A DNA stretch of 64,000 bases from Candidatus Poseidoniaceae archaeon (lineage in GTDB: Archaea > Thermoplasmatota > Poseidoniia > Poseidoniales > Poseidoniaceae): NCBI GenBank assembly GCA_024958795.1, contig JANXHP010000008.1:2698-66697 (forward strand), written 5' to 3'. Below are positions 9,353 to 64,000 of the stretch, in pieces (position 1 is the first letter of the stretch; each line of letters starts with the position of its first letter). The position numbers and the translations under genes are program-made. The notes beneath the pieces are model-generated. The model had not been told where the DNA came from. It saw only the letters and a program-made list of their open reading frames with translations, and ran no database searches.

Positions 9353-10257
9353 TCAATTTCGTCTTGGACATCAACAGCATTGAGGAATTTTGTTTCAATT
9401 AACTTAACATCAGGATATCTTGAGGTATACCATTGTTTCAGTCGTTCACATGATGGTTTGCTAATAGATGGAGCAACCAATACAATCACAGTTCCAGAAC
9501 CCGACATCCCTGCTGCTCTTGCACCATTAACAAACGCATCATTTGTCAATTTTCTAGCAGTTGAATCCGAGATAATTCCAACCATTGCTCTACCATTCCA
9601 AGTTAGTGCGACAAGTTCTTGTCCTTCTTGAATCGCATTTAATGCGTGAACAAAATTTTGTTGCTGTGCTGAAAAGGCTTCAGGATCAGGTCTTGAAGTT
9701 CGCTCACCTCTTGACAGAATTAAGACGAACCAGTCATCAGCAGGAGGTCCAGAACCCTCCATTAGTACCCCTTCTTCAATTGTTTCAGCATTCACATCGA
9801 TTAATTTCCAACCATTTGTTGCGCAAGCCCAAGCATCATCAATAGAACCGGTGATAGAAACACCTGCTTCCAATTGTGCTTGAGCAGACATTAGTACGAG
9901 GTCTTTGTCTTCTAATTCCATTTCCATTGAATTATTCAATGCGCGTAGTGCAGCGATTGAAACAGCGGCAGATGATTTCAAACCTTGACGCGGTGGGATT
10001 TTTGAAGCGACTGCCCAATGCAAATCCTCTTTTTCTAATTTGTTTGGTAATGAATGTCCACTGGCAACCCATACATTGACGACAGCCTCTAGCAAACCAT
10101 CAGGATCGGATAATGCCCTCTTACTTTCTTTATCGAGAAGGCGAACTGCAACTGGTAAATCAAGTGCCATACTACATCCATAGCCCAAGCCAGCAGCGTG
10201 AAGAAGACTACAAGCGCCATGTGCTTGCCCTTTACCTATCACCGCCATTCTTCTCAC
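9349..10257 (-). CDS. aroK: Archaeal-type (GHMP-family) shikimate kinase
   Basis: The size is about 300 aa, with a GHMP-like pattern (GLKSSAAVSIAALRAL; GMSGSGTVIVLV). Its position in the aro operon and the 4-nt overlaps on both sides support the call. Confidence 0.75.
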   Translation of the reverse strand: MRRMAVIGKGQAHGACSLLHAAGLGYGCSMALDLPVAVRLLDKESKRALSDPDGLLEAVVNVWVASGHSLPNKLEKEDLHWAVASKIPPRQGLKSSAAVSIAALRALNNSMEMELEDKDLVLMSAQAQLEAGVSITGSIDDAWACATNGWKLIDVNAETIEEGVLMEGSGPPADDWFVLILSRGERTSRPDPEAFSAQQQNFVHALNAIQEGQELVALTWNGRAMVGIISDSTARKLTNDAFVNGARAAGMSGSGTVIVLVAPSISKPSCERLKQWYTSRYPDVKLIETKFLNAVDVQDEIE

Positions 10258-11288
10258 CTCTCAACTACTTCGCTTGGCACCGCAACACCGATATGTCTGG
10301 CATCGCGACTACTCCACCCGAGAATCTGTTCGCCAATGGTTAAATCAGTTACGGCTATCAATTTTCTCTGAGAAGTGACTAAACGGACAGTCTCTGCTTG
10401 TTGTGTGAAGACTTGGGACTCTTTATCATTTGTATTCTTGAATGAGAATAATAACATCGGCCTACGTTCAATTTTCAATCTTCCAATGGTAGCAGATTTA
10501 CAGTTTTGTGAATCAGAAACAATTAACACTTCATCACCTGCCTTTAGTTCACTCAAATATTTTGTTGTTCTATCAGCCATCACGATATATGCATGAGGTG
10601 GTCCTGCATTTACTCTAAATGGACGCGAAGGAACATATTCGGAAGCAAGCGTTTCACCATGTATTAATACCATACAAGAAGAACTTGAACCAATTAACAT
10701 ACCTTCACCAATTTCCAAAAGACTTGTCAAATCAATACAATATCTATCCGAGATACCTCCCGATTCAATATTGGTTATCAGTAATGGTTGTAATTCAATA
10801 ATTTCATTATCTTCAACATCATTAATTGGTTCAACAATTTCACCACGTTGTGATTTTGCAATCGTTGCAGAATCAATCATTTGCTGTTCAGGTCTAATCA
10901 CCAAAGCATCAACTCCAATTTCTAACGCAAAAGCAGCTCCTTGTGCTTCTGCAGGAGTGCGGATTAATGCAGCAATTTTGGTAGGACTTCCAGTACAAGC
11001 AGCAATAATATTCTCTATGGGTATCATTGACCAATCTTCAAATTCTAATAATAACCAATTTACACTTCCAACCAATGAGCGTGCAATATCTTGACCCTCA
11101 GATCCATTAATATTGATTATTTGGCCAATGACCTCATCATCTTTAATAATACTATTTCCATTGCTAATAATATTTGGAATATCAGTTTCATTAGGTTGTT
11201 CTATAGATTTAATAATACAATCGATTGAATCTAAACCATAGTTTGATAATTCTGTAAAGTTATCGCGATTATCTAGCCACACTTGCAT
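10254..11288 (-). CDS. aroB': 3-dehydroquinate synthase type II (archaeal AroB')
   Basis: The ORF is 344 aa and lies directly downstream of the AroA' aldolase. Its length and pattern fit the DHQ synthase II family rather than NAD/Zn AroB. Confidence 0.75.
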   Translation of the reverse strand: MQVWLDNRDNFTELSNYGLDSIDCIIKSIEQPNETDIPNIISNGNSIIKDDEVIGQIININGSEGQDIARSLVGSVNWLLLEFEDWSMIPIENIIAACTGSPTKIAALIRTPAEAQGAAFALEIGVDALVIRPEQQMIDSATIAKSQRGEIVEPINDVEDNEIIELQPLLITNIESGGISDRYCIDLTSLLEIGEGMLIGSSSSCMVLIHGETLASEYVPSRPFRVNAGPPHAYIVMADRTTKYLSELKAGDEVLIVSDSQNCKSATIGRLKIERRPMLLFSFKNTNDKESQVFTQQAETVRLVTSQRKLIAVTDLTIGEQILGWSSRDARHIGVAVPSEVVER

Positions 11289-51859: not shown

Positions 51860-53158
51860 TCATTCATTTCTTAACTCTTCAAGTAATTCTTGAACTTTTG
51901 TTTGAGTTTTTGGTCCTGATAGGGCTTGTAAACGTTGAGCAACGATTTCAACTTCATCACCAGTAGCGCCTGCGCTAACCGCCATATTACGAGAATGTAA
52001 CTTCATGTGTCCTGCTTGTATACCGCTTGTTGATAGCGCCCTTAATGCACCTAAATTCTGTGCTAATCCTGATGCTGCTATAACTCCAGCCAATTCTTGA
52101 GCAGAATTAACTCCGAGGATGGCTAAATTAGCTCTAGCAACAGGATGTACCTTACTTGCTCCCCCAACAATTCCTACAGCCATTGGAGTCTCAATGGTCC
52201 CTACAAGGTCTCCATTCTCGTCCTGAGTCCATTGTGTCATCGATGTGTAGATTCCTGATTTGTGGGAAGCCCAAGCATGGCATCCTGCCTCAATTGCTCT
52301 CCAATCTTGCCCACAGGCTACTGATACACTACTGATAGCATTCATCACTCCCTTGTTATGGGTAACTGCCCTAAATGGGTCAGCAATAGCAAAATGGTGT
52401 GCTTCTAGTATTCCATCAATCACCTGCAATCCATTCTCGCGGGTACCATCATCGGATAACTCCTCAGCTGTAAAAGTGGCTTCCACCCTTGCTAATCGGT
52501 GGGCTGCGAGGTTGGATAGTATTTTCAAGTGAACTCTGCCACCGGTTAATCTTTCAACTTCTGGTGCAATTAATTCACACATAGTATTGACTGCATTTGC
52601 ACCCATTGCATCCCTTGTATCAACCAATATATGCATAATTAGCATTGAACCAGATAAGGTTTCAATCACTCGCAATTCAATATCTTTACATCCACCGCCC
52701 AATTTTATCATCGTACTTGGTCGATCATTACATATCCTCATAAGTTCATCTTTAGAGTTTTCAATAATTGAGGTTGCTAATGGAATGTCTGACAATTCAA
52801 GAATCTGCAATTGCCCAATCATCATAGGATCGTCATTATTTGTGCGAAAACCACCCCTAGAAAGGCAACGTTTAGCCATATTTGATGCTGCAGCCACAAC
52901 GCTTGACTCTTCTAAACAGAATGGAATTAGGTAGTGTTTTCCATCAATAACAAAGTTTGTTGCGACTCCAACAGGTAATGACATAGTTCCAATGACATTC
53001 TCAATCATATTGTTCGCAGAATCTTCAGATAACTCTCCATGGGCTGCCAGTGCATCGATTTGAGCCTGACTTAGGCCTGCTGCTTCAGCAACGATCTGTC
53101 TACGTTCAGCAACAGTTAGTCTGAAAAAACCACTTAGACGACTATTTTCAACTGACAT
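51860..53158 (-). CDS. hmgA: HMG-CoA reductase, class II type
   Basis: ENVIGTMSLPVGVATNFVIDGKHYLIPFCLEESSVVAAASNMAK, DAMGANAVNT and GTIETPMAVGIVGG fit the class II pattern. The Met at 53158 (MSVENSRLSGF) has a GAGGA sequence upstream and is preferred over 53191. Confidence 0.9.
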   Translation of the reverse strand: MSVENSRLSGFFRLTVAERRQIVAEAAGLSQAQIDALAAHGELSEDSANNMIENVIGTMSLPVGVATNFVIDGKHYLIPFCLEESSVVAAASNMAKRCLSRGGFRTNNDDPMMIGQLQILELSDIPLATSIIENSKDELMRICNDRPSTMIKLGGGCKDIELRVIETLSGSMLIMHILVDTRDAMGANAVNTMCELIAPEVERLTGGRVHLKILSNLAAHRLARVEATFTAEELSDDGTRENGLQVIDGILEAHHFAIADPFRAVTHNKGVMNAISSVSVACGQDWRAIEAGCHAWASHKSGIYTSMTQWTQDENGDLVGTIETPMAVGIVGGASKVHPVARANLAILGVNSAQELAGVIAASGLAQNLGALRALSTSGIQAGHMKLHSRNMAVSAGATGDEVEIVAQRLQALSGPKTQTKVQELLEELRNE

Positions 53159-53257
53159 CCCGCTTCCTCTATGCATAGCCACTAACCTCAATCACATCAA
53201 GACATCGCTTTGATTGACCTGTGAGTGTTGATTCAGGATTTCTAAGTTTCTCAAATA

Positions 53258-53369
53258 TTAACGGGATTAACGCTTTCTCTAACGCGTTAATGATGCGTTA
53301 ATGATGTGTTAAACGGAGTGATAATGGCTAGAAATTAGTCCTTTGGTGTTTTGATTACCGTGTCTTAAC
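53258..53369. promoter_or_regulatory. Cluster of seven TTAAC/GTTAA half-sites, including a TAACGCGTTA palindrome and a GCGTTAATGAT tandem direct repeat
   Basis: TTAAC occurs at 53258, 53267 and 53365. GTTAA occurs at 53286, 53297 and 53308. The palindrome spans 53280..53289. The direct repeat spans 53284..53294 and 53295..53305. The cluster lies in the 272-nt divergent intergenic region, the longest non-coding stretch in the window. Confidence 0.6.
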
Positions 53370-53430
53370 ACGTCTTTGTTGCCTGTTGATTAGGTCAAAC
53401 AATAAATACCCATTGGCAATTGCTCTAGTT

Positions 53431-55434
53431 ATGCGGATTGAAGGTAAAGAGATTGAACTTCCCCTATTGTTGCAGAACCCATTTTCCACAGCTCCTTTGG
53501 AAGAAGGTCAAAAAAGCCTCTTAGTAGGCCGAAAAGAGATATTTAATAATCTAACACAGCATATTAGTTTCCGTTCTACTAGACGAATATTGATGGTAGG
53601 GAGTGTCGGTTCAGGGCGGACTTCATTGCTACGATGCTTGGCTAATGTTGCTCCAAAAGCGCTACATGTCGACCATATTCATGCTTCTGCTCCAGCAAAA
53701 AGTCTGTTAGAATCATTATATTCGCAATTGGTTGGACAAAATATTCCTACACAGTATACAGCGATTGTATCAGAAATGGTTGAAACTAGTAAATCGTTCA
53801 CTGGAAAATTACCATTGGTCGTTATTGACGTTCCTACTGTTGATTCCTCAGTTCTAAATGTTGCACTGAGAGATACATTGCCCGTAATTGAGAGGCTGCA
53901 GGTATTGATGGTTGTAGTATTAGATCATAAGCAAAAAGCACACTTACCAGAATCGGTATTAGAGAGGTTTGACTTGGTAAGTACATTGAATCCACTTAGT
54001 GTTGAATCGGTTCAAGAGCTGGTGAATTTGAGAATACGTTCAGCATGTAGCACTCGATATTCGTTGCCAAAAGAGGATGCTGAGCACCTGCTATCCATAA
54101 CAGACGGATTGCCAGCCTCAATTATTAGGGTGATGAGAGATGCTGTTGATTCCAATAGGATGGCGCAAAATCAAGTGGCTCAAAGTAGTGATAATTATGA
54201 TTCTCGCGATAGAAGAGGGTTTGATACAAGTGCAATATTGCCCACACAACAGCCTGATGCCTCAACAACAGGCATTTTTACCTCAAATAAAGGCCAATAT
54301 GGCGATGATTTGAATTCCGAGTCAAGTAATGTGGAAAATGATGAAGAGGCCGGATTAGACGCTTCAAAGGGACAAAATCAACAATCTGATATTTTTGGTG
54401 GATTAATGGATCAAATTGGAAATGAATACAATGAAGTTATTGAAAAATCAATAGAACCCTCAGAAGAAGGCGATGTTGAGATATTGGATGCGTCTGAATC
54501 ATGGCAAACTAGGGCTCAAGATGACGAATTAGATACAGAACAATCACAACAGAATGAATGGCAAGAAGTACCTGGTTCAGGGGGTTCGCTGTTTGGATTC
54601 GATTTAGATTTAGAGGATTTAGGAGATTCACAGGATAATGATGAACCATTAGTGGAAACTCCATTTGATATTTTTAATTCAGAAGAGATCAAAAATGAAA
54701 CAGTGAAGCCAATTCCATTGAAAATGGCAGGTATGTTCGGCTCATTAGTCGGAAGAATGAGGGACGTACCAGATGCAGAAAATCAAAATCAAGATGATTT
54801 TGAAATCACGAAAGGAGGAGATGGTGCCGAATTATGGATTGCTAAAGATTCTAATCTAATTGATGAATCAAACGATGATGACTTAGAAGGGGATGGGACT
54901 GCGGTATTGTATGATGAAACGAGCATAGTGGATGGCGAATTTGATGAACAAGTAGAATACGAAGTAAATGATATTAGTCAAGAAGAGAGTTACATTGAAT
55001 CGGAAATAGTAACCAATGCTGATATGAAGACGTTTTCAACTTTAGTCAATGCACTTCAAACTGCTTTGTTAGCGCCACAAAAACCAGATGGTACAATTGA
55101 TCGTAGAAAGTTAATCGATGCATTGACAAGTTTACGGCAACCAAGGGTTGGGGAAAGAGTTGATCATCCATTAAATCCGGGTGTGTTGTCAAATTTATCA
55201 CCTCATGAAGCAGTTGTTGTAGCAACTGCTAATGAAAGAAAATACTCTCCTTCCGATAAAGAACTATTACAAGAATTGAAAATAAAAAGGTCTAGATTAT
55301 CTCAAATAAGTAATCGCTTACTGAGGGGCGGTATCCTCAATGTTCGTACGGTTGGGAAAAGCCGAATGTTCACATTGACTCAAACTGCAAGGGCCCAATT
55401 GACTGCTTGGAACATGATGGGAGGTGAGTCTTGA
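53431..55434 (+). CDS. Orc1/Cdc6-architecture AAA+-like protein with degenerate Walker motifs, ~300-aa acidic disordered linker and C-terminal winged-helix domain
   Basis: The Walker A position reads MVGSVGSGRTSLL, with Arg in place of Lys. The Walker-B-like segment is LPLVVIDVPT. The lid region is LSVESVQELVNLRIRS. The central region is rich in D/E/N/Q. The C-terminus (LKIKRSRLSQISNRLLRGGILNVRTVGKSRMFTLT) is wHTH-like. The track start at 53386 is TTG, so the ATG at 53431 is preferred. Confidence 0.6.
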   Translation: MRIEGKEIELPLLLQNPFSTAPLEEGQKSLLVGRKEIFNNLTQHISFRSTRRILMVGSVGSGRTSLLRCLANVAPKALHVDHIHASAPAKSLLESLYSQLVGQNIPTQYTAIVSEMVETSKSFTGKLPLVVIDVPTVDSSVLNVALRDTLPVIERLQVLMVVVLDHKQKAHLPESVLERFDLVSTLNPLSVESVQELVNLRIRSACSTRYSLPKEDAEHLLSITDGLPASIIRVMRDAVDSNRMAQNQVAQSSDNYDSRDRRGFDTSAILPTQQPDASTTGIFTSNKGQYGDDLNSESSNVENDEEAGLDASKGQNQQSDIFGGLMDQIGNEYNEVIEKSIEPSEEGDVEILDASESWQTRAQDDELDTEQSQQNEWQEVPGSGGSLFGFDLDLEDLGDSQDNDEPLVETPFDIFNSEEIKNETVKPIPLKMAGMFGSLVGRMRDVPDAENQNQDDFEITKGGDGAELWIAKDSNLIDESNDDDLEGDGTAVLYDETSIVDGEFDEQVEYEVNDISQEESYIESEIVTNADMKTFSTLVNALQTALLAPQKPDGTIDRRKLIDALTSLRQPRVGERVDHPLNPGVLSNLSPHEAVVVATANERKYSPSDKELLQELKIKRSRLSQISNRLLRGGILNVRTVGKSRMFTLTQTARAQLTAWNMMGGES

Positions 55435-56480
55435 TGGCTTGGGAGATTACTTGGTCTAAACAAGCACCAAGCATTATCGCTACAATCGCAGCAAGCGAAG
55501 GCGGTTTAGTAGTTAGTAATGGTTTGAATCTTTCATTCTTTGAACATGATGGTAGTGAAAGATGGTCTGTAGATATGCCATTCAAAGTTCATGCAATTGA
55601 AAGCGGTCAAGGAATTCTTGGTATTTTAGCAGCTCATGGATTTTATGTTATGTCTACTAGAGATGGTTCACTATTGCATGAAGGAAGAAGCAGCCCTGGT
55701 GGTTTCACTGGAATAAAAGCAAGACCAGGTGGGGGTTGGGTGCTATCTGGTAGAGATGGGAATTTACATCTTTTCTCACAAGAGGGTAGAGGAATTCGAC
55801 GCATGGATAGTGGCATGGTTAGGAGATTAATTGGCTGGCTAGATAGAGAACATTTGATGTGGCAAGCAAGCGATGGAAGAATCTGGTGTGGTAGATTAAC
55901 CGGATCTGATAAGAAAAGGTGCCTAGAAGACAGGATTTGGAGTTGGTCTAGCAATTTAGAAAATGGTAGGATTATTTTACAATCAAGTGATGGAAGCTTG
56001 TGGCAAGGTATTCCACATCCATTTGGGTGGGATGATTTGATTAGACTTGAACAAGATTCCATAGAAGCAATGGAAGGGATAATCAGTGCTGATGGCTGGT
56101 GGGTATTGGGTATTGAAGGACGCCTCTATCATATTTCTAGAACATTGGAAGAGGATATTGAAATTCTTGGAGAGTCAATGGACTTGGGAGAACTTTTGGT
56201 TGGTTTAACGCCTGACTCAATGGTAACTGCTACACGTTCTGGATTAATTCGTAAGTGGTCAGCACCACATCTAGCACAATCTGAACGAAAGGGACTCTAT
56301 GAAGCTGCAGCAGAGGCTGCAATGGCAAGAAATTGGGATGAAAGAAAGGATTTATTCATGCGAGCACAAACTGCAGAAGATGAAGGAAAACTATCGGTTG
56401 CAGTCGAATTGTATGGTGCGCTTGGCCGTAAGGAAGATGTTCGCCGCCTCTTAAAACGACAAAAGGAGGGTGGAGAATGA
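55431..56480 (+). CDS. Cytoplasmic beta-propeller (PQQ/WD-like repeat) protein with C-terminal helical tail
   Basis: The pattern ..DG.l......G.......w.. recurs about every 40 aa (DGSERWSV, RDGSLLHEG, RDGNLHLFSQEG, SDGRIWCG, SDGSLWQG, IEGRLYHIS, RSGLIRKW). No signal peptide is present. There is a 4-nt ATGA overlap with the upstream gene. Confidence 0.55.
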   Translation: MMAWEITWSKQAPSIIATIAASEGGLVVSNGLNLSFFEHDGSERWSVDMPFKVHAIESGQGILGILAAHGFYVMSTRDGSLLHEGRSSPGGFTGIKARPGGGWVLSGRDGNLHLFSQEGRGIRRMDSGMVRRLIGWLDREHLMWQASDGRIWCGRLTGSDKKRCLEDRIWSWSSNLENGRIILQSSDGSLWQGIPHPFGWDDLIRLEQDSIEAMEGIISADGWWVLGIEGRLYHISRTLEEDIEILGESMDLGELLVGLTPDSMVTATRSGLIRKWSAPHLAQSERKGLYEAAAEAAMARNWDERKDLFMRAQTAEDEGKLSVAVELYGALGRKEDVRRLLKRQKEGGE

Positions 56481-56776
56481 GTGATGATCTTGTTGAAGTC
56501 TCAGAGGAAAAAGTGATGCAGTATCTAGATATTACAAAAAGAGCTAGAGAAAAAGCAACACCACTCTTTCCAGAAGGAAGCGAGCAATCAAAACAATTAG
56601 CAATAATGATGAGAATGGCAGATGATTATTCATCAGATGCCAAACATTTTTTGAATATTGGTGATAGAGTAAGGGCATTTGGAGCAATTAATTACGCTCA
56701 TGCTTGGATTGATGCTGCTGTAAAACTTAGGTTGTTAGACGGGCATGGCGATGATGTATTGTTCACCTTACCATAA
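56477..56776 (+). CDS. DUF357-family small protein
   Basis: This is a 99-aa helical protein. ADDYSSDAKHFLNIGDRVRAFGAINYAHAWIDAAVKLRLL matches my recollection of the archaeal DUF357 core. There is a 4-nt overlap with the upstream gene. Confidence 0.5.
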   Translation: MSDDLVEVSEEKVMQYLDITKRAREKATPLFPEGSEQSKQLAIMMRMADDYSSDAKHFLNIGDRVRAFGAINYAHAWIDAAVKLRLLDGHGDDVLFTLP

Positions 56777-56782
56777 TAATTT

Positions 56783-57235
56783 TCAATTATTTCTTTGTGC
56801 TAAATTTTCAAGTGTAGTAATCGCTGAAACAATATATGTGATTTTGTCTTGTGCTTCTTCAATAAATGGGACAATACATTCGTTAATGGTTCCAGTTAAC
56901 TGATAAATGTGTGAGGGTCTACCACGGCCTGCAGCAGCAGTAGAATCCAATTTTACAACCTTTAAGCGACGTAGTTCAGCGATTGCAACGCTAACATCTG
57001 GTTGCCTAATATTGCAATTATCTTGTAACATTTTTGATGTTGAAGGTCCATGTACATGTAGGCAAACTAAGCATTTTGCAGTATGACTCTGAACACCTAG
57101 TTTAATCAATGTAAAAACCAGTTGTTGTGAACTTTCTATCTTGTTGAAACCATCCATTTCCACCAAACTATTTTCAGCCTGCATGGCCTTTACGTTGATA
57201 TCTTCATATATGAACTTCTTACCGGCAATATTCAA
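56783..57235 (-). CDS. Winged-helix transcriptional regulator (TrmB/MarR-like)
   Basis: LIKLGVQSHTAKCLVCLHVHGPSTSKMLQDNCNIRQPDVSVAIAELRRLKVVKL...GRGRPSHIYQL fits a helix-turn-helix plus wing pattern. Confidence 0.6.
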   Translation of the reverse strand: MNIAGKKFIYEDINVKAMQAENSLVEMDGFNKIESSQQLVFTLIKLGVQSHTAKCLVCLHVHGPSTSKMLQDNCNIRQPDVSVAIAELRRLKVVKLDSTAAAGRGRPSHIYQLTGTINECIVPFIEEAQDKITYIVSAITTLENLAQRNN

Positions 57236-57323: not shown

Positions 57324-57713
57324 CTATAGATTATCAATCACGTTCAATCTCTTATTTTTTGCAACTTCAATAATAAGGATACCCGAATCAAACAATCGAC
57401 GCTTTAATTCAGTATCAACAGTCAAAACCGGAATGCCTTCATTTATTGCAAATGATATAATTTGATCATCGGGATGATCGCCTGAATTTTCAGGTGCATC
57501 AATCATCACAGTTCTTGCTCTTAACAATTGTAGCAAAAGGGATTTTTTCTTTGACCGTTTGGAGTTGATTTCTTCTAATTCCTTCTCAACATCGGGCAAC
57601 AAAAGAAGTTGACTTGGGCCCATTAATTGCAATAATGCATCATCGATGTTGATTCCAGCATCAATTACTGCAACCCAACCGCACGCATCAACAATTATTC
57701 TTTGCACATTCAC
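57324..57713 (-). CDS. PIN-domain ribonuclease (Fcf1/Utp24-like housekeeping type)
   Basis: The acidic residues are spaced as in PIN domains (IVDACGW, VEKELEE, PDDQII, LTVDTEL). The gene lies directly downstream of the aIF2-gamma gene, a neighbourhood I recall as conserved in archaea. Confidence 0.6.
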   Translation of the reverse strand: MNVQRIIVDACGWVAVIDAGINIDDALLQLMGPSQLLLLPDVEKELEEINSKRSKKKSLLLQLLRARTVMIDAPENSGDHPDDQIISFAINEGIPVLTVDTELKRRLFDSGILIIEVAKNKRLNVIDNL

Positions 57714-57757
57714 TGCTAATCAGCAATCTTTGATGAAATGTGCGTTTGTCAGCACAG

Positions 57758-58996
57758 TTATTGTATTGTTCCGTAGCCAATTAATCTCCAACGAGAACCA
57801 ACACGTCGTGATAATGAAACTCTTTGTCCAGTATCAGCACAGATAGGAAGTCTTAATTCAAGACCAGTACGACTTTTTTCAGCGTTCTTAGTAACGCCAA
57901 CAGAAGTTGCAGTAGCAACATTTAGCATTAACATTTCATTATTTCGTAATGGATGAATCTTCTCTGGTTTTTCACCTTCTCCAGCGACCATATTATCCAT
58001 TAGATTGACAGAGATTTCAAGTTTTGAGCGCACTTCTGGTAAATCTCCTTTTCTTGCAACAACTTGTCCACTCAAGTTATCAGCAGTTGTGATACTTGGG
58101 TCTAATTGAGTTGCCATTCCACACAGGCCACCAGCGTGCATATTTTTCAAATTTAATCCACCACCTTGCATACTGCTAACAATTGCTTCAATCGGCTCCC
58201 AAGTTGATTTATTGCCCTTCTCTATTTTTCGTCCTGGTCCAATAATAATTTCATCACCATCATTGAATTCACCTTCAACAATACTTCCACCGATTACGCC
58301 ACCTCTCAGTTTGCTTGGTCGTGTTCCAGGTCTATTGATATCAAAAGAGCGAGCTACATGCATTATTGAACGCTTATCCTTTGAACGGTCAGGTGTAGGA
58401 ATTGTTTGTTCAATAGCATCGATTAAAATGTCAAGGTTCACATCATGGTGTGCTGATACTGGAATAACTGGAGCGTTTTCAGCTATTGTTCCTTTCAAGA
58501 AGGACTTGACTTCTTGGTATGACTCCATAGCACGCTCTTTACTGACTAAATCAATTTTATTTTGAACTATTACAATATTGCTAATACCTGCAATTTCTAG
58601 TGCCATTAAGTGCTCTCTAGTTTGAGGTTGAGGACATGTTTCATTTGCAGCAACCATCAACATTGCACCGTCCATTATGGATGCACCAGTGATCATTATT
58701 GCCATCAATGTCTCGTGACCAGGGGCATCTACGAATGAAACAACCCTTTTCAGTTCCTTTTCAACATCATCTCCACCATCAGGACGGCGACCTGTTGCGT
58801 AGTATTGTCCCTCTTTGGTTTGATAAAATGCAGTGTCGGCATATCCCAATTTAATAGAAATACCGCGCTTTCTTTCTTCGGAATGAGTATCTGTCCAAAC
58901 TCCAGAAAGAGCTTGAGTTAGAGTTGTTTTTCCATGGTCAACGTGACCTACAAGGCCAATGTTGATTTCAGGTTGAGAAGGAAGCTTTCTTGCCAT
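57758..58996 (-). CDS. eif2g: Translation initiation factor aIF2 gamma subunit
   Basis: G1 is GHVDHGKTTL and G3 is DAPGHE. NKIDL is present, with domains II and III following. The ORF is 412 aa. Confidence 0.97.
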   Translation of the reverse strand: MARKLPSQPEINIGLVGHVDHGKTTLTQALSGVWTDTHSEERKRGISIKLGYADTAFYQTKEGQYYATGRRPDGGDDVEKELKRVVSFVDAPGHETLMAIMITGASIMDGAMLMVAANETCPQPQTREHLMALEIAGISNIVIVQNKIDLVSKERAMESYQEVKSFLKGTIAENAPVIPVSAHHDVNLDILIDAIEQTIPTPDRSKDKRSIMHVARSFDINRPGTRPSKLRGGVIGGSIVEGEFNDGDEIIIGPGRKIEKGNKSTWEPIEAIVSSMQGGGLNLKNMHAGGLCGMATQLDPSITTADNLSGQVVARKGDLPEVRSKLEISVNLMDNMVAGEGEKPEKIHPLRNNEMLMLNVATATSVGVTKNAEKSRTGLELRLPICADTGQRVSLSRRVGSRWRLIGYGTIQ

Positions 58997-59035
58997 TGCT
59001 TCCTACTCCTCATTTTACGAATTCCCTCTCGGGTT

Positions 59036-59527
59036 TCACTCCGATGCTTCTTCGCTACCAGAAGAAGTGATATCAGCAAGGCTCTTATTGCCTGCTTCAG
59101 TAACTTTCAAGTTGATTTGACGAGTATCTTGGGTAATGGTGTTACCGCGGAAGTTTCTACGCTTACGTAGTCCGTCTAGTTTGTAGCGGAAACGCTTCTT
59201 TTCCCCACCTTTACTCTTGAATACAAGAGAGTGCCCCTTGAATCCAGTAGAAGCGGTGACCAGAATAGATTGGCGAGAACCACCTTCAAGGTCACGGCGA
59301 AGAGGCGTTCCAGTTTTATCTGAACCACCAGTGATTTGTAATTTGAAACCAGAAAGAGTTTGTTCACCTTCTCCAACGAAAATACCGTCAACAGTATCTC
59401 CAATTTTCTTGCCCAATAATTGAGCATGATTGTTTCCACTAATCTTCAATGAGTAAGACTTGCCACCATTGGCAGGATCTGTATCATTTACGACGGCTAC
59501 GAATTCTCCTTGTTGTCCAACAGCCAT
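59036..59527 (-). CDS. rps6e: 30S ribosomal protein S6e
   Basis: GFKLQITGGSDKTGTPLRRDLEG, RKRRNFRGNTI and the overall S6e pattern are present. Confidence 0.9.
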   Translation of the reverse strand: MAVGQQGEFVAVVNDTDPANGGKSYSLKISGNNHAQLLGKKIGDTVDGIFVGEGEQTLSGFKLQITGGSDKTGTPLRRDLEGGSRQSILVTASTGFKGHSLVFKSKGGEKKRFRYKLDGLRKRRNFRGNTITQDTRQINLKVTEAGNKSLADITSSGSEEASE

Positions 59528-59600
59528 AATCTACACCACTAGAATAACTCGCCGACAAGAGACCCATATTTAGGCTCACCGCATAGGTCTACAATTGCAT

Positions 59601-60803
59601 TTAGCGTTGCAGTCGCTTAGGAAGCAGCAATTCTAGGCGGCTTGAAAGGTCTGCAGGCAGGTGGTGTGGCATACTGAGATGAGTTGTTCTACCCCTGCCA
59701 TCACTAACAGTAGCGACCTTAGAATCAATCAACTGCTCCTGTTCTAGGTACTTTACATATTTCCAAATCGTCGTGTGACTCTTTTGTTTCTGTTCGTATT
59801 CTTCACAGACTACAGCGTAAAGGGATTCAACATCACCCATCGTCATTGTCGCTTCAGTCTTCAATCTCCTGCACATCGCTAGAAGAACTAACATCTGATG
59901 AGCCGAAAGGATATCAACGACTTCTAATTTGGTTCCAATGTTGAATGCGACACTATCATTTGCTTCATGAATATCTTCAATCAATATCTCTCTTACACTA
60001 TGTGAATCTTGTCTATATTCGCATCGTTCAACAGCTGCAGATAATAATTCAATACCTCTTCTTGCATCGCCAGTTGCAGCGGCCTTTTCCGCAATTAAAC
60101 GGATTATTTTTGGAGAGTAAGTTCCAGTAACGAGAGAATATTCTGCTCTTTGCTGGATTATCTTTTCAATTCCTTCTACAGTATAAGGTGGGATTTTGAT
60201 ATGATTGGTACTCCCCATTCGTGATAAGACGGCTGTTTCTAATAGGTCAAGAACCTGTTCTTGACTAATAATTATCAGAGAGATAGTTCCTTTTCCCGAT
60301 TGGTCTTCATCTATCCTTAGAAGTTGGTAAAGAAGGTCATCACCGGAGCGCCTCAACATATGGTCTACTTCATCTAGTACAACGATTAAGTGGGCCGAAT
60401 CCCTTCTAATTAATTTGCGAAGACTGATTAACAATTCACCCATTGAAAGCCCTCTATCTGGATGACCCGGATCTAATTTGTGTAATATTCTTTGAACAAC
60501 TCGCATGCTTGTCGATGCGTTTCTGCAATTTATCTGAACGGTTTTTATTTGTCTCTTATTTGCAAGATGTCGCTGGATATCTCTACAAAATGTTCCTGCT
60601 AGGACAGTTTTCCCACTTCCCACAGGTCCGGTGATGACTGCACGTCCAGCTCCATCAGGATGTGATAGCGTGGAAAATTTGCTCGCCAATTGATTCTGAA
60701 TGTCATCTCTACCAACTAATTCATCAGGCATAAAATCAAAATCAAGACCTTCTGGATTGGCTAAGACGAAACCCGCTCCAATTCGGTCAAGGTAGTTGCT
60801 CAT
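59601..60803 (-). CDS. cdc6: Orc1/Cdc6 replication initiator
   Basis: LVGRDDIQNQL precedes Walker A ITGPVGSGKTV. Walker B is LIVVLDEVDHM. The C-terminal winged helix is GRGRTTHLSM. The ORF is 400 aa. Confidence 0.92.
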   Translation of the reverse strand: MSNYLDRIGAGFVLANPEGLDFDFMPDELVGRDDIQNQLASKFSTLSHPDGAGRAVITGPVGSGKTVLAGTFCRDIQRHLANKRQIKTVQINCRNASTSMRVVQRILHKLDPGHPDRGLSMGELLISLRKLIRRDSAHLIVVLDEVDHMLRRSGDDLLYQLLRIDEDQSGKGTISLIIISQEQVLDLLETAVLSRMGSTNHIKIPPYTVEGIEKIIQQRAEYSLVTGTYSPKIIRLIAEKAAATGDARRGIELLSAAVERCEYRQDSHSVREILIEDIHEANDSVAFNIGTKLEVVDILSAHQMLVLLAMCRRLKTEATMTMGDVESLYAVVCEEYEQKQKSHTTIWKYVKYLEQEQLIDSKVATVSDGRGRTTHLSMPHHLPADLSSRLELLLPKRLQR

Positions 60804-60894: not shown

Positions 60895-62004
60895 TCAAGG
60901 AATTTCATCAAATTGATAACCGAGTTCCCATTGTTTTTCGCCCAATGAAACCTCTAATTCGAATGGAGTAAGCATTGGCTTACTATAGCGCACTGCATCA
61001 TCTATGGCAATTCTTGGACAGGATGTGTTTACAAATGCATCAACTGGATAGAAATCTATCAGTTCTGGGCCAATATGTTCTAATGCCAGCAAATATCCTT
61101 TCTTACCATGCTTCTCTAACATTCTCTTCATTCTCAGTGCTAGAGTTCGACGCATTTGTCCAGGTTTTTCTCCGATTAGAATACCAAAGCTTTGAGCCTT
61201 ATCACAAGCCATGATGAGGCCAAACCGTTGTCTTAGAATTCTCTCAATTCTTTCAAGTGACATTTCTTCTGCATCTCCGCTATATGGGTCTAGCATTGCA
61301 AGTGGTTTTCCAGTGTGCAATACTAATCCGATTGGATGAAAATCACCACTTCCTAAGAACAAGTAGTGTCCAATATCATCTTGGTCACCCGAATAATTGC
61401 AACCTAGAACCTGTCCTGGAAATGAGAGGCGGGCACCACCTAATGGAATTGTGACATCAAATCCAGCCTTTTCAAGTCGGTCATGGAAATCTGGCAATAG
61501 GTGCAGATGTTGAATAGAACCAACCAATCCCAATTTAGTATCAGTGAGAGGTGCTAAACGCCCAACAGCATCTAAAAACTTCTCTTGGGCATCTTCTGTT
61601 GTAAGGTCAGTAGGGTTTTCTTGGTCCAATAGGCGTTGTTTTGCCATAGCGCGGTGATTTTCCAAGAAAGGTAGAACAGGAGTTAATTCAGGGTCACCAT
61701 CATATGTTACATCAATAAATTGTGTTGGCATACCTGATTCAATATTCATTTGACTATGACCCATATGTGCGACTAATTCAACACCCATCATCTTCATCTT
61801 ATCATGAACAAGGTCACATGCTCCGTAACATGGGTCTGCTGCAAGTACTACCTTTGCACTTGTTTCAGTTTCAATTTGATCCATCATTTCCAGTGCTTGA
61901 ATCTTCAAACCTTCTGGAAGTTGCAGAGCAATTAGACGGTGGTCACTGGAACGAATTCTATCCATCAACTCAGTGAGTTCGAAATCGTGACGGTCTAAGT
62001 CCAT
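60895..62004 (-). CDS. dph2: 2-(3-amino-3-carboxypropyl)histidine synthase (diphthamide synthesis, Dph2)
   Basis: LIALQLPEGLK is the family N-terminal motif. Conserved Cys residues fit the radical-SAM-like [4Fe-4S] site (DPCYGACD, TSCPRIAIDD). Confidence 0.85.
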   Translation of the reverse strand: MDLDRHDFELTELMDRIRSSDHRLIALQLPEGLKIQALEMMDQIETETSAKVVLAADPCYGACDLVHDKMKMMGVELVAHMGHSQMNIESGMPTQFIDVTYDGDPELTPVLPFLENHRAMAKQRLLDQENPTDLTTEDAQEKFLDAVGRLAPLTDTKLGLVGSIQHLHLLPDFHDRLEKAGFDVTIPLGGARLSFPGQVLGCNYSGDQDDIGHYLFLGSGDFHPIGLVLHTGKPLAMLDPYSGDAEEMSLERIERILRQRFGLIMACDKAQSFGILIGEKPGQMRRTLALRMKRMLEKHGKKGYLLALEHIGPELIDFYPVDAFVNTSCPRIAIDDAVRYSKPMLTPFELEVSLGEKQWELGYQFDEIP

Positions 62005-63112: not shown

Positions 63113-63208
63113 AAATTATCATATATCAACACATGGATGAATTGCAATTTTGAATAATTGTGCAAACGGATTAAGAAAGCGAGCCTTTTGGCACTGATGG
63201 GTAGGGTC

Positions 63209-64000
63209 ATGGATTTCGCGCAAACCGATGAACAGGAAATGATTAGAGAGTTGGTTAGAGACTTTGCAGAGACCGTATTAGCCCCTACAGTTGAGCATCG
63301 AGATGAAAATCAAATCTCTCCGAGCGAGGAATGGGAACAATTTCTAGAATATGGACTTCAAGCAGTTACAGTGCCCGAGAAATATGGTGGCTCACCAATT
63401 GACGATGTATCCGAATCAATAATTATTGAAGAATTGGCGAGAGTAGATCCTTCATTTGCAGTAATGTACTGTGTTCATGTAGGGTTATGCTGTAAAACAA
63501 TTGCACTTCATGGTAATGAAGAACAGAAGGAGAAATATTTACCTCGACTGGCAGAAGGAGAGGTTGGAGCATATTCATTGAGCGAAGCAGGTGCAGGTAC
63601 AGATGCTGCAGCAATGACTTGTAAAGCAAAGTTGAGTGATGATGGCTCTCATTATATCTTAAACGGAGAGAAAATGTGGGTTACAAACGGAATACAAGCT
63701 AAAATTATTGTATTGTTCGCCAAAGATGTTGACCATCCAGAATATGGAGTGAAGAGACATGGTGGAACTACAGCATTTATTGTTGAATCAAGTTTTGAAG
63801 GCTTTTCAGTGGGTAAGAAGGAAGATAAGTTAGGAATTCGAAGTTCAGATACCTGTACTCTCATTTTACAGGATTGTAAAGTACCAGTAGAAAACGTAAT
63901 CAAGCAAGTAGGAAAAGGATTCCCTATAGCAATGAACGCATTGGATAACAGCCGAATTGGTATTGCAGCACAAGCATTGGGAATTTCTCAAGGTGCTTTT
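63209..64000 (+). CDS. Acyl-CoA dehydrogenase, N-terminal ~264 aa (3' end outside the window)
   Basis: I translated this by hand from the ATG at 63209: MDFAQTDEQEMIRELVRDFAETVLAP...YSLSEAGAGTDAAAMTCKA...YILNGEKMWVTNG...GIRSSDTCTLILQDCKVP...LDNSRIGIAAQALGISQGAF. The frame is open to the window end, which is why it is absent from the ORF track. Confidence 0.92.
   Translation, partial: MDFAQTDEQEMIRELVRDFAETVLAPTVEHRDENQISPSEEWEQFLEYGLQAVTVPEKYGGSPIDDVSESIIIEELARVDPSFAVMYCVHVGLCCKTIALHGNEEQKEKYLPRLAEGEVGAYSLSEAGAGTDAAAMTCKAKLSDDGSHYILNGEKMWVTNGIQAKIIVLFAKDVDHPEYGVKRHGGTTAFIVESSFEGFSVGKKEDKLGIRSSDTCTLILQDCKVPVENVIKQVGKGFPIAMNALDNSRIGIAAQALGISQGAF

Follow-up and report, generated by a model that had tools for sequence, protein, structure and literature searches.

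A core operon of Poseidoniales archaea predicted to encode a STAND-like AAA+ protein with a winged helix, a beta-propeller and a DUF357 protein

The STAND NTPases, among them Apaf-1, the NLRs, MalT and AfsR, join an AAA+-derived NTPase and a lid, whose GxP motif contacts adenine, to WD40 or TPR sensor repeats and, in the bacterial regulators, to a DNA-binding effector; they operate by a slow-switch logic. The same order of NTPase, lid and C-terminal winged helix that we describe below is found in PF01637 'ATPase_2'/AAA_16/KAP-type NTPases with a MarR winged helix (P0362, P0367 and P0382), a reference family that to our knowledge is itself uncharacterised. An AAA+ base, a lid and a C-terminal winged helix also make up archaeal Orc1/Cdc6 (TIGR02928; PDB 2qby, 1fnn and 2v1u). 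In iteron-type operators and centromeres (ParR/parC of plasmid R1; the SegB sites of Sulfolobus), multiple short repeats are spaced by roughly one helical turn, and such arrays sit upstream of the operon for the presumed binding protein. We compared with these systems a three-gene locus and the array of sites upstream of it, both in a 64-kb window, the whole stretch of DNA that was analysed.

Three ORFs lie on the plus strand at 53431-55434, 55434-56480 and 56477-56776. The three-gene unit claimed in a first-pass annotation of the window is thus present, and its gene order is syntenic in every genome examined, including all 80 Poseidoniales (Marine Group II) species loci. The assumed start of gene 1, ATG 53431, holds; TTG 53386, listed by an ORF tool, would fall upstream of the conserved promoter box. 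The genes had been described as chained by two ATGA overlaps. At 55431-55434, however, the bases read TTGA within the junction TTGATG, and the conserved gene 2 start, ATG 55434, overlaps the TGA stop of gene 1 by 1 base (TGATG); this 1-nt form is found in 68 of 81 loci and a 4-nt overlap in 13. The ATGA at 56477-56480 is a true overlap of the gene 2 stop and gene 3 start, and a 4-nt overlap occurs at this junction in 62 of 72 scorable loci. In every locus that spans the genes, among them those of 80 GTDB species genomes, the stop/start overlaps are likewise kept.

A Shine-Dalgarno sequence for gene 2, GGAGGTGA (55420-55427, plus strand), falls within the final codons of gene 1, where it encodes the conserved C-terminal GGE with its invariant G664 and G665, and another for gene 3, AGGAGGGTGGAG (56464-56475, plus strand), lies within the end of gene 2. 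Similar motifs precede gene 2 in 76 of 85 loci and gene 3 in 69 of 74; before gene 1 such a motif is rare, being present in 10 of 78 loci and absent from 68. Given these sites and the promoter box before the gene 1 ATG, the proposed co-transcription holds, and the signals in the DNA mark genes 1-3 as a genuine operon that would be translated via the embedded Shine-Dalgarno sites. The stoichiometric three-protein complex that had been deduced from the overlaps is not supported. With 94% of the window coding and some 6-7 of its 38 same-strand junctions overlapping, overlaps are not rare here and do not by themselves imply such a complex. DUF357 is unlikely to be an obligate member of one, because it is a near-universal single-copy gene in archaea, whereas genes 1 and 2 turned up in Poseidoniales-type contexts only.

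The TTAAC-type array reported next to the operon is real, lies upstream of it and, within the 64-kb window, is unique. It spans 53258-53312, at 120-175 nt before the gene 1 ATG, and comprises six dyad half-sites, conserved in register across 21 aligned loci: TTAACG (53258), TTAACG (53267), a central palindrome cTAACG|CGTTAA (53279-53290), CGTTAA (53296) and tGTTAA (53307), with spacings of 9, 12 | 11 and 11 nt. The pattern CGTTAA-N3-7-CGTTAA occurs twice in the 64 kb, both times within the array, against an expectation of 0. Over 75 loci, the average count of exact TTAACG/CGTTAA hexamers in 300 nt is 4.65 upstream of gene 1 versus 0.05 elsewhere, an enrichment of about 88-fold. The only DNA-binding domain immediately adjoining the array in every locus checked is the winged helix of gene 1. 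A second pair of TAAC-type sites (ATTACC and CTTAAC, ~10 nt apart) is found closer to the promoter at 53354-53369, and appears in the 21-locus alignment as the columns A.T.AC...T..TAAC. It is followed by the promoter box AAACAATAAATACC (53397-53410, plus strand), whose consensus AAA.AT.A.ATACC keeps a constant distance to the ATG in the 21 loci. We infer that this BRE/TATA-like box is an archaeal TATA/BRE. It lies ~22 nt, and its centre ~26 nt, before ATG 53431, and this proximity implies a leaderless first cistron.

Gene 1 (53431-55434, plus strand) encodes a protein of 667 aa with a STAND/ATPase_2-like AAA+ module, an acidic disordered linker and a C-terminal winged helix. The AAA+ base and lid (aa 1-250; 53431-54180) were modelled by AlphaFold2 with moderate confidence only (pLDDT 70-83). 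They carry the N-terminal motifs NPF..P and hhGR..E, followed by the P-loop GSVGSGRTS (53599-53625), in which Arg63 (cgg, 53617-53619) takes the place of Lys, as the first reading of the sequence had it. A sequencing error or a strain-specific mutation does not account for this Arg, since all six Arg codons are used at the position across loci. The residue alternates between Arg and Lys among orthologs, with Lys forms in the same gene context and at no fewer than four places in an admittedly crude tree. The P-loop glycines are invariant, and the P-loop therefore appears, from these substitutions, to be under selection. The Walker B motif (PLVVIDVP; of the form hhhhD, with PLVVID at 53815-53832) has no acidic residue after the Asp, also as claimed; the second acidic residue is absent from Arg and Lys forms alike, while the outgroup has DD or DE. 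The lid contains an invariant G226-x-P228, and the protein has neither a conserved arginine finger nor a sensor-2 Arg.

The D/E/N/Q-rich insert, put at ~300 aa beforehand, proved to be a linker of 278 aa (aa 251-528; 54181-55014) that AlphaFold2 predicts to be disordered (pLDDT ~25-50), with 27% D+E, 13% N+Q and a net charge of -60. Short motifs are nevertheless conserved within it: FGFDLDLxxL (aa 390-397), LxGRxR (439-444), GAELW (465-469) and hHDExG (494-498), with F390, L392, L394, L397, R442, G465, L468, W469 and E496 invariant. The predicted C-terminal winged helix is indeed present (aa 529-660; 55015-55410, plus strand; pLDDT ~80-87) and is a winged helix-turn-helix of the ArsR/MarR kind. 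Conservation within the protein is highest here (SPSD...KRxRLSQISNRL...R.VG.SR), and the BigR/ArsR-like matches are weak (NCBIfam E 0.004; PDB 3pqj E 0.03). In JGI, relatives bear the name 'ArsR family regulator'.

The Orc1/Cdc6 layout attributed to gene 1 stands as far as the order of AAA+ base, lid and winged helix is concerned, but membership in Orc/Cdc6 does not. As a candidate Orc1/Cdc6 member, gene 1 failed every Orc1/Cdc6-specific model, including TIGR02928, and the Pfam models Cdc6_lid and Cdc6_C matched none of 47 members of its family, whereas the genuine Orc1 of the window at 59601-60803 passed (E 4.8e-68). Gene 1 profiles to a non-Orc family with variant Walker motifs, and the Orc label falls. 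AAA_16 matched 47 of the 47 family members and nSTAND1 26 of 47, weakly; for gene 1 itself the AAA_16 score was below the Pfam threshold (23.5 versus 32.6 bits) and no Pfam STAND model reached threshold. An HMMER profile search of 1.84 billion representatives returned only 228 proteins, the farthest being PF01637/AAA_16/KAP NTPases with MarR or TPR domains. With hhalign, the PF01637/KAP-type proteins with a MarR winged helix aligned at 98.8% (E 4e-17, 233 columns) and the genome's own Orc1 at 95% (E 4e-8), a comparison that favours the outgroup, which was picked from the best matches of the gene 1 profile. Foldseek with the AAA+ module gave Orc1/Cdc6, Orc4, MuB, TnsC and RFC (E 2e-7 to 1e-5) as well as Apaf-1 (3sfz, E 8.5e-6). 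Gene 1 is an AAA+ fold related to the STAND/'archaeal ATPase' switches and, by hhalign, nearer to PF01637/KAP-type proteins than to Orc1.

With the PF01637/KAP-type proteins gene 1 shares NPF..P, hh[GN]R..EL and the GxP lid motif. It differs from them in the Arg (or Lys) of Walker A, in loss of the second Walker B acidic residue, in the gain of the ~280-aa acidic linker, and in being accompanied by a dedicated propeller gene and, upstream, by a conserved array. Unlike STAND proteins, it has its putative repeat domain on a separate polypeptide, the gene 2 product, and lacks the second Walker B acidic residue. With Orc1/Cdc6 it has in common hhGR..E before the P-loop and a PL/PY motif after box VII, but its winged helix is ArsR/MarR-like, the 280-aa insert intervenes, and the Walker B Glu and conserved Arg finger are missing.

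Gene 2 (55434-56480, plus strand) encodes 348 aa. As described from sequence, it forms a propeller with a helical tail: AlphaFold2 predicted seven blades (aa 1-276) with 28 strands at a mean pLDDT of 88, followed by a four-helix TPR-like tail (aa 278-346). Inspection of the N-terminus, together with a beta-strand in the model there, agrees with the claimed lack of a signal peptide, and the propeller appears to be cytoplasmic. Its likeness to seven- and eight-bladed propellers such as BamB, beta'-COP, G-beta and WDR5 is one of fold only (Foldseek E 1e-13 to 1e-10, TM 0.55-0.75; BamB E 3e-13; 7-bladed WD40 proteins TM 0.65-0.75), with identities of 10-18%; it has no Pfam repeat family match, it is distinguished by the TPR-like tail, and its sequence matched nothing in Pfam, NCBIfam or the PDB. 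Relatives occur in 257 GTDB species genomes. Gene 3 (56477-56776, plus strand; 99 aa) is a clear DUF357 protein, as stated earlier (PF04010, E 3.7e-19; PDB 2pmr and 2oo2, E 3e-5), and differs from other members in operon context only.

The three genes might be co-located yet independent, gene 1 being a lineage-specific stand-alone transcription factor, gene 2 and DUF357 unrelated to it, and the overlaps a product of genome streamlining. The compact coding and frequent overlaps of the window fit this explanation, as does the contrast between a near-universal DUF357 marker and two lineage-restricted genes. Synteny is weak evidence for functional coupling, because collinearity across the order extends to all 15 kb of the neighbourhood (SMC-ScpAB-hmgA ... 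PIN_9-aIF2gamma-S6e-Orc1), and adjacency is thus not independent evidence. On the other hand, the overlaps and embedded Shine-Dalgarno sites persist to ~35-45% protein identity and in the divergent locus L007, genes 1 and 2 share their phyletic range and always occurred together in the loci examined, and conserved motifs within a disordered linker argue for a binding partner. P0380, a relative of the gene 1 NTPase domain, carries fused TPR repeats, as is usual for STAND proteins, and by analogy this suggests the propeller as that partner. We consider independence unlikely, though a serious alternative. It is improbable that gene 1 belongs to an Orc-derived DNA-organising complex, a sharper form of the idea in the first-pass annotation, in which gene 1 would bind the array as a site akin to an origin, a centromere or an SMC-loading site and the propeller would be the scaffold. 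Its best single Foldseek match is archaeal Orc1/Cdc6 on origin DNA (2qby_B, E 2e-7), the hhalign result with Orc1 points the same way, in all genomes the locus is 6 kb away from orc1 and adjoins smc-scpA-scpB, and the arrangement of iterated, helically spaced sites ahead of their own operon is reminiscent of plasmid centromeres. Against this stand the missing Orc-specific matches and catalytic residues, the closer relation to PF01637/KAP-type proteins and the STAND-type GxP where Orc has the GDAR sensor 2. The array centre is a CG|CG palindrome, no AT-rich unwinding element was found at the array, the flanking 45 nt being variable and not AT-rich, and the hexamer is not known to resemble archaeal ORB elements. 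No partition motor NTPase is encoded, and in contrast to iteron centromeres the putative binding site is chromosomal, single-copy and core; a 'partition-like' role is pure speculation.

The array lies in the spacer shared with hmgA (HMG-CoA reductase; 51860-53191, minus strand, divergent from gene 1), ~70-150 nt from hmgA in the window and most loci, and could be an hmgA operator through which gene 1 or another factor regulates isoprenoid lipid synthesis. In L007, however, an AhpC gene is inserted between hmgA and gene 1; the array there is upstream of gene 1 only, and TTAACG is absent from the hmgA-proximal spacer. Promoter box and second TAAC pair alike are positioned relative to the gene 1 ATG, and we regard control of hmgA as quite improbable. 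An anti-virus defence module of STAND type is highly implausible: some distant relatives lie in apparent defence islands (P0362 is beside ORC-CDC6-like, PRTase-CE and HerA-like genes), but PADLOC gave no matches, no effector domain is present, and the system keeps the same core-genome position where seen and was found in 257 GTDB species genomes.

Our preferred reading, to which we give a probability of about 45%, is that the operon encodes a STAND-like transcription factor that is also a hydrolysis-poor nucleotide switch, regulates its own expression and acts together with the propeller. This reading builds on what was directly observed: the anatomy, homology and conservation of the proteins, the operon signals, and the array with its linkage to gene 1. 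The distance of the array counts against it, being far for a simple archaeal repressor. The canonical STAND winged helix packs right after the lid; here ~280 disordered residues detach it, which also speaks against this reading. Under the preferred reading, gene 1 would descend from the STAND-related 'archaeal ATPase' group (PF01637/AAA_16/KAP-type NTPase with a MarR/ArsR winged helix). Having retained elements for nucleotide binding (P-loop glycines and Arg/Lys, Walker B Asp, adenine-contacting GxP) and lost those for hydrolysis (Walker B Glu, conserved arginine finger, sensor-2 Arg), it may be a nucleotide-dependent switch, slow or non-hydrolysing. As an oligomer, it would use its invariant winged helix to bind the TTAACG array, on six dyad half-sites one helical turn apart and two promoter-proximal sites, and so control at least its own operon. 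The linker motifs, the AAA+ module or both may dock the co-translated gene 2 product, whose role would correspond to that of the WD40/TPR sensor arms of single-chain STAND proteins, and DUF357 is probably no more than a co-expressed housekeeping passenger. For the Poseidoniales, the operon would be a core and order-specific one, expressed from a leaderless promoter.

The window derives from a Candidatus Poseidoniaceae (Marine Group II) archaeon. Genes 1, 2 and 3 occupy 53431-55434, 55434-56480 and 56477-56776, respectively, all on the plus strand, and an NCBI MAG protein matches the gene 1 product at 100% identity. The first-pass annotation had described ATGA overlaps at both junctions. The gene 2/gene 3 junction is indeed a true ATGA at 56477-56480, but no ATGA is found at 55431-55434, where the junction had been misread. 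The sequence there is cTTGATGg, with the TGA stop of gene 1 at 55432-55434 and the ATG of gene 2 at 55434-55436, a 1-base overlap. Across loci the gene 1/gene 2 overlap is 1 nt in 68 and 4 nt in 13, and the gene 2/gene 3 overlap is 4 nt in 62 and 1 nt in 5, with the remaining loci within 8 nt. Relatives of gene 2 occur in 257 GTDB species genomes, of which the best 80 are Poseidoniales throughout, save for one evidently mis-binned contig. In all loci long enough to judge, the three genes are adjacent and in the order 1-2-3, so the synteny extends to other genomes. A complete archaeal gene 1-gene 2-DUF357 operon is also carried by L069 (NZEQ01000054.1), a contig filed as Verrucomicrobiales bacterium isolate ARS100; the contig almost certainly entered that MAG as contamination during binning. 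On the divergent contig L007 the full 346-aa gene 2 ORF is intact (10036-11076) and has an ATGA overlap with gene 1; the source annotation calls merely a 158-aa fragment of it (10600-11076). A gene 1-gene 2 fusion was considered for the 1012-aa relative P0282 and rejected. Gene 1 of L007 reaches 1012 aa because its linker is much longer, and gene 2 is intact but mis-called by the annotation.

The ends of the first two genes carry the translation signals of the genes that follow. A GGAGG-like Shine-Dalgarno motif lies inside the 3' end of gene 1 (76/85) and of gene 2 (69/74), while such a motif before gene 1 itself is rare (10/78). In the window the Shine-Dalgarno of the next cistron is found in GGAGGTGA at the end of gene 1 (55420-55434) and in AGGAGGGTGGAG at the end of gene 2 (56464-56480). 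Both proteins end in a conserved C-terminal Gly-Gly-Glu because it is encoded by this embedded signal; at these C-termini a translation signal constrains protein sequence. A conserved box, AAAnATnAaATACC, lies ~22 nt upstream of the gene 1 ATG and is probably an archaeal BRE/TATA element, which would drive a leaderless tricistronic mRNA.

The multi-site array of TTAAC type reported next to the operon is present at 53258-53312, in the spacer between hmgA (HMG-CoA reductase) and gene 1, and reads TTAACG-N3-TTAACG-N6-cTAACG/CGTTAA-N5-CGTTAA-N5-tGTTAA. It consists of six half-sites with dyad symmetry, 9-12 nt apart, and a second TAAC pair lies at 53354-53369, directly upstream of the promoter box. 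The paired motif has no other occurrence in the 64-kb window (0 expected), the central palindrome is likewise unique, and upstream of gene 1 exact hexamers show ~88-fold enrichment. The register of the array is kept in an alignment of 21 divergent loci, including lineages in which gene 1 has Lys at the Walker A position. It is the hexamer sequence that is conserved, with spacers of varying length in between, a pattern that fits protein-binding DNA. An RNA element or hairpin was rejected, since the array region folds weakly as RNA (-13.2 kcal/mol, z -2.9), its hexamers are paired out of register and it lies upstream of the gene 1 promoter. An Rfam scan of the window returned one tRNA and nothing else. 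In L042, the locus from the closed MG-II chromosome CM001443.1, a run of N at about locus position 950-970 interrupts the central part of the array; it reflects either masking or an assembly gap that falls precisely on the palindromic repeat.

We compared the nucleotide-binding motifs of gene 1 across its relatives. The P-loop reads GxxGSG[R/K][TS]S. Arg is found at the Walker A position in 77 of the 79 scored loci and in most representatives, and all six Arg codons are in use. The Arg63 of the window is thus real, and a sequencing error or strain-specific mutation was rejected. It is not a strict family invariant either, as seven representative clusters have Lys, and the two of these that were checked, one of them within Poseidoniaceae, show the same gene 1-gene 2-DUF357 context. 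On a crude neighbour-joining tree, Lys forms appear among the Arg forms at four places or more. The interchange of Arg and Lys, together with the six Arg codons, suggests that the residue is selected to be basic, with the two side chains interchangeable. Walker B is hhhhD followed by V, A, C or Y, which confirms that the catalytic Glu is absent; the second acidic residue is missing in both Lys and Arg forms, and the outgroup of more distant NTPases has DD or DE. The box VII position, Arg176, is not conserved (R/K/S/M), and no sensor-2 arginine aligns in the gene 1 alignment. The P-loop glycines, the basic residue, the Ser/Thr, Asp133 and a GxP motif are conserved, which argues for a protein predicted to retain nucleotide binding with little hydrolysis.

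The structure of gene 1 was predicted with AlphaFold2 using 47 homologs. The model has an alpha/beta P-loop domain with a helical lid (aa 1-250, pLDDT 70-83), a disordered region of 278 aa (aa 251-528) and a winged helix (aa 529-660, pLDDT ~80-87). An AAA+ base and lid with a C-terminal winged helix, as in Orc1/Cdc6, is therefore present in the model, and the anatomy of a degenerate AAA+ module, winged helix and propeller described at first pass was right. In a Foldseek search of the PDB the top match was Sulfolobus solfataricus Orc1-3 (2qby_B, E 2e-7), with Orc4, MuB, Cdc6, TnsC, RFC, RuvB and Apaf-1 within two orders of magnitude of it. Given such closely spaced scores, the predicted fold is that of an AAA+ protein of the initiator/loader/STAND neighbourhood and not specifically Orc.

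Profile comparisons also point away from Orc. Window gene 1 is above no Pfam threshold (AAA_16, 23.5 bits against a cut-off of 32.6); some family members pass AAA_16 (best E 1.7e-10), and ATPase_2 appears only faintly, in P0255, a Lys-form relative. Weak Pfam matches among the 47 members are to AAA_16 (47/47), nSTAND1 (26) and ‘ORC-CDC6-like’ PF24389 (8). TIGR02928, Cdc6_lid (PF22703) and Cdc6_C (PF09079) match neither window gene 1 nor any of the 47 members; the genuine Orc1 of the window (59601-60803) matches TIGR02928 (E 4.8e-68), Cdc6_lid and Cdc6_C. A PDB sequence search with the ATPase part of gene 1, as a single sequence and as a 47-sequence profile, found nothing. With HMMER the gene 1 profile recovered just 228 proteins at E ≤ 1e-3 from 1.84 billion representatives, and on this count the family is isolated. 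Its outermost matches are ~400-aa AAA_16/PF01637/KAP NTPases joined to a MarR-type winged helix or TPR repeats; two distant relatives, P0362 and P0367, are above the PF01637 threshold, both with MarR_2. Using hhalign, the gene 1 N-domain aligned with P0362, P0367, P0382 and a protein of L008 at 98.8% (E 4.2e-17, 233 columns) and with Poseidoniales Orc1 at 95% (E 4e-8), a comparison biased towards this outgroup over Orc1 because the outgroup was picked from gene 1's best matches. Gene 1 and the outgroup share an N-terminal NPF..P, hh[GN]R..EL before the P-loop and the GxP that opens the last lid helix; in gene 1 its G226 and P228 do not vary among 47 sequences. GxP is a STAND lid motif, and its proline contacts adenine (PMC2323615). 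In the hhalign alignment Orc1 carries GDAR where gene 1 has GxP.

Taken against known families, gene 1 does not carry the Orc1/Cdc6 set of Walker A GKT/S, Walker B hhhhDE, box VII Arg finger and GDAR. Its assignment as an Orc/Cdc6 paralog is not supported: the Orc-specific models are unmatched, GxP stands in place of GDAR, and hhalign places it closer to PF01637-type proteins. It shares profile homology and architecture with the PF01637 ATPase_2/AAA_16 plus winged-helix archaeal ATPases, although the window protein stays below the Pfam gathering threshold for PF01637 and AAA_16. Like STAND NTPases it has a helical lid with GxP following the NTPase core. STAND NTPases, however, have two Walker B acidic residues where gene 1 has a single Asp, a winged helix packed straight onto the lid where that of gene 1 follows the 278-aa disordered linker, and a repeat sensor in the same chain, whereas the propeller here is a separate gene. 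The most distant NTPase relatives of gene 1 (L009 56-7971, L008 2093-7205) lie amid ORC-CDC6-like (PF24389), PRTase-CE, HerA/DUF87-like and TPR-fused ATPase_2 genes, surroundings that resemble a conflict or defence island and differ from the core-genome setting seen in Poseidoniales.

The disordered region of gene 1 is acidic (D+E 27%, N+Q 13%, net charge -60) and variable apart from four or five invariant islands, FGFDLDLxxL, LxGRxR, GAELW and hHDExG, which resemble short docking motifs. The winged helix at the C-terminus (SPSD...KRxRLSQISNRL...) is the best-conserved part of gene 1; its sequence is weakly similar to ArsR/BigR/MarR regulators, with a marginal PDB profile match to BigR. Gene 2 is better conserved than gene 1 (43-96% versus 35-88% identity among relatives). 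AlphaFold2 models it as a 7-bladed propeller of 28 strands in seven four-stranded blades (pLDDT 88) followed by four helices, the last pair with a TPR-like pattern. Foldseek returned generic propellers only (BamB, beta'-COP, G-beta, WDR5), with TM 0.65-0.75 to 7-bladed WD40 proteins. It shares seven four-stranded blades with WD40/PQQ-like propellers but lacks their sequence repeat signature, and no match was found in Pfam (WD40 and PQQ families included), NCBIfam or PDB sequences. Gene 3 is a clear DUF357 (PF04010, 68.9 bits versus a 29.4 cut-off, profile positions 1-73 of 73). Its 120 matches listed include no homolog outside Poseidoniales and are at ≥68% identity, and a literature search gave no information on DUF357 function.

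Upstream of the operon lie SMC (partial), ScpA, ScpB and HMG-CoA reductase (minus strand). Downstream, all on the minus strand, are an MreA-like regulator, PIN_9, aIF2-gamma, S6e and the bona fide Orc1/Cdc6; the next ORF (60895-62004) is probably Dph2, by analogy with related loci. The MreA/Lrs14-like winged-helix gene (56783-57235, minus; NCBIfam MreA E 5e-21, below cut-off) sits between DUF357 and PIN_9. The related loci L001 and L003 have no such gene at that position, and L005 has an unannotated one of 136 aa; the MreA/Lrs14-like gene is an insertion specific to this lineage, in a gene order that is fixed otherwise. The cluster PIN_9-aIF2-gamma-S6e-Orc1/Cdc6-Dph2 is conserved (window 57324-60803, minus; L001 9229-12680), with a 4-nt overlap between PIN_9 and aIF2-gamma in L001. 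Only ~70-90 nt separate orc1 from the genes on either side; a non-coding stretch large enough for an origin is thus not evident next to it in this window. A 539-nt gap at 63113-63651 was rejected as a candidate origin. It is the start of an ORF (63211-64000, plus strand, MDFAQTDEQEMIRELVRDF...) that runs past the window end and so was not listed by the ORF tool, giving a false gap; by eye it resembles an acyl-CoA dehydrogenase.

The most economical reading, to which we assign a probability of about 0.45, is an autoregulated operon. The gene 1 product would be a hydrolysis-poor nucleotide switch derived from STAND/‘archaeal ATPase’ proteins, with the winged helix as effector and the TTAACG array as its operator. 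The propeller would be its trans-acting partner or sensor, with the linker motifs as the probable docking site; the analogy is to single-chain STAND WD40/TPR arms and to P0380, a relative fused to TPR repeats. For DUF357 the likeliest role is that of a passenger, co-expressed with the other two. Being one of the 76 single-copy core genes of archaea in the anvi'o collection (PMC12680538), it cannot in general rely for its function on genes 1 and 2, which are lineage-specific. The overlaps had been taken to imply a stoichiometric complex. Since the 15-kb neighbourhood is collinear throughout the order and ~1 in 6 same-strand junctions overlap in this window (94% coding), they show co-expression and not such a complex. 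The main rival, that independent genes are merely co-located, we consider rather unlikely.

An Orc-like role at an origin or in partition is quite unlikely: the tests of Orc membership were negative, there is no AT-rich unwinding element and there is no motor. Type I/II par systems combine a motor NTPase (ParA/ParM) with a centromere binder and repeats; here there are repeats and a putative DNA binder alone, and no ParA/ParM-like gene was found in the operon or its flanks. The array shares its spacer with hmgA and could be the hmgA operator, but in L007, where a peroxiredoxin gene separates hmgA from gene 1, it stays upstream of gene 1 and away from hmgA, which makes this very unlikely. As a long shot, gene 1 and the propeller may form a Poseidoniales-specific chromosome-organising complex nucleated on the array, which could be a centromere-like or SMC-ScpAB loading/anchoring site near Orc1. 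The hydrolysis-poor P-loop would then serve as clamp or switch, with chromatin proteins engaged by the acidic linker. Such a complex would fill the role of bacterial ParB/parS, for which we know of no archaeal equivalent. An anti-virus defence function is highly improbable, given the core, fixed chromosomal position and a PADLOC run without matches.

The first-pass observation was real and largely accurate; apart from the misread junction, the stoichiometric complex is not supported as stated, and the attractive but wrong ‘Orc paralog’ label is now corrected. Few archaea of the surface ocean are as abundant as the Poseidoniales (Marine Group II). They are known mainly from MAGs, the source of every record retrieved here, and conserved gene modules are consequently one of few handles on their biology. 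This operon is present in 257 GTDB species genomes, its chromosomal position is the same in all loci examined and its cis-element is clearly defined; it offers a testable pair in the winged-helix protein and the candidate TTAACG array. For the Walker A lysine it also amounts to an experiment done by nature, in which Arg and Lys switch against a constant background of glycines, Walker B Asp and GxP, with the residues for hydrolysis lost. These swaps are informative on how AAA+/STAND modules become pure nucleotide-binding switches. The system is an order-wide, putative variant of STAND-like nucleotide-switch regulators with a well-defined cis-element.
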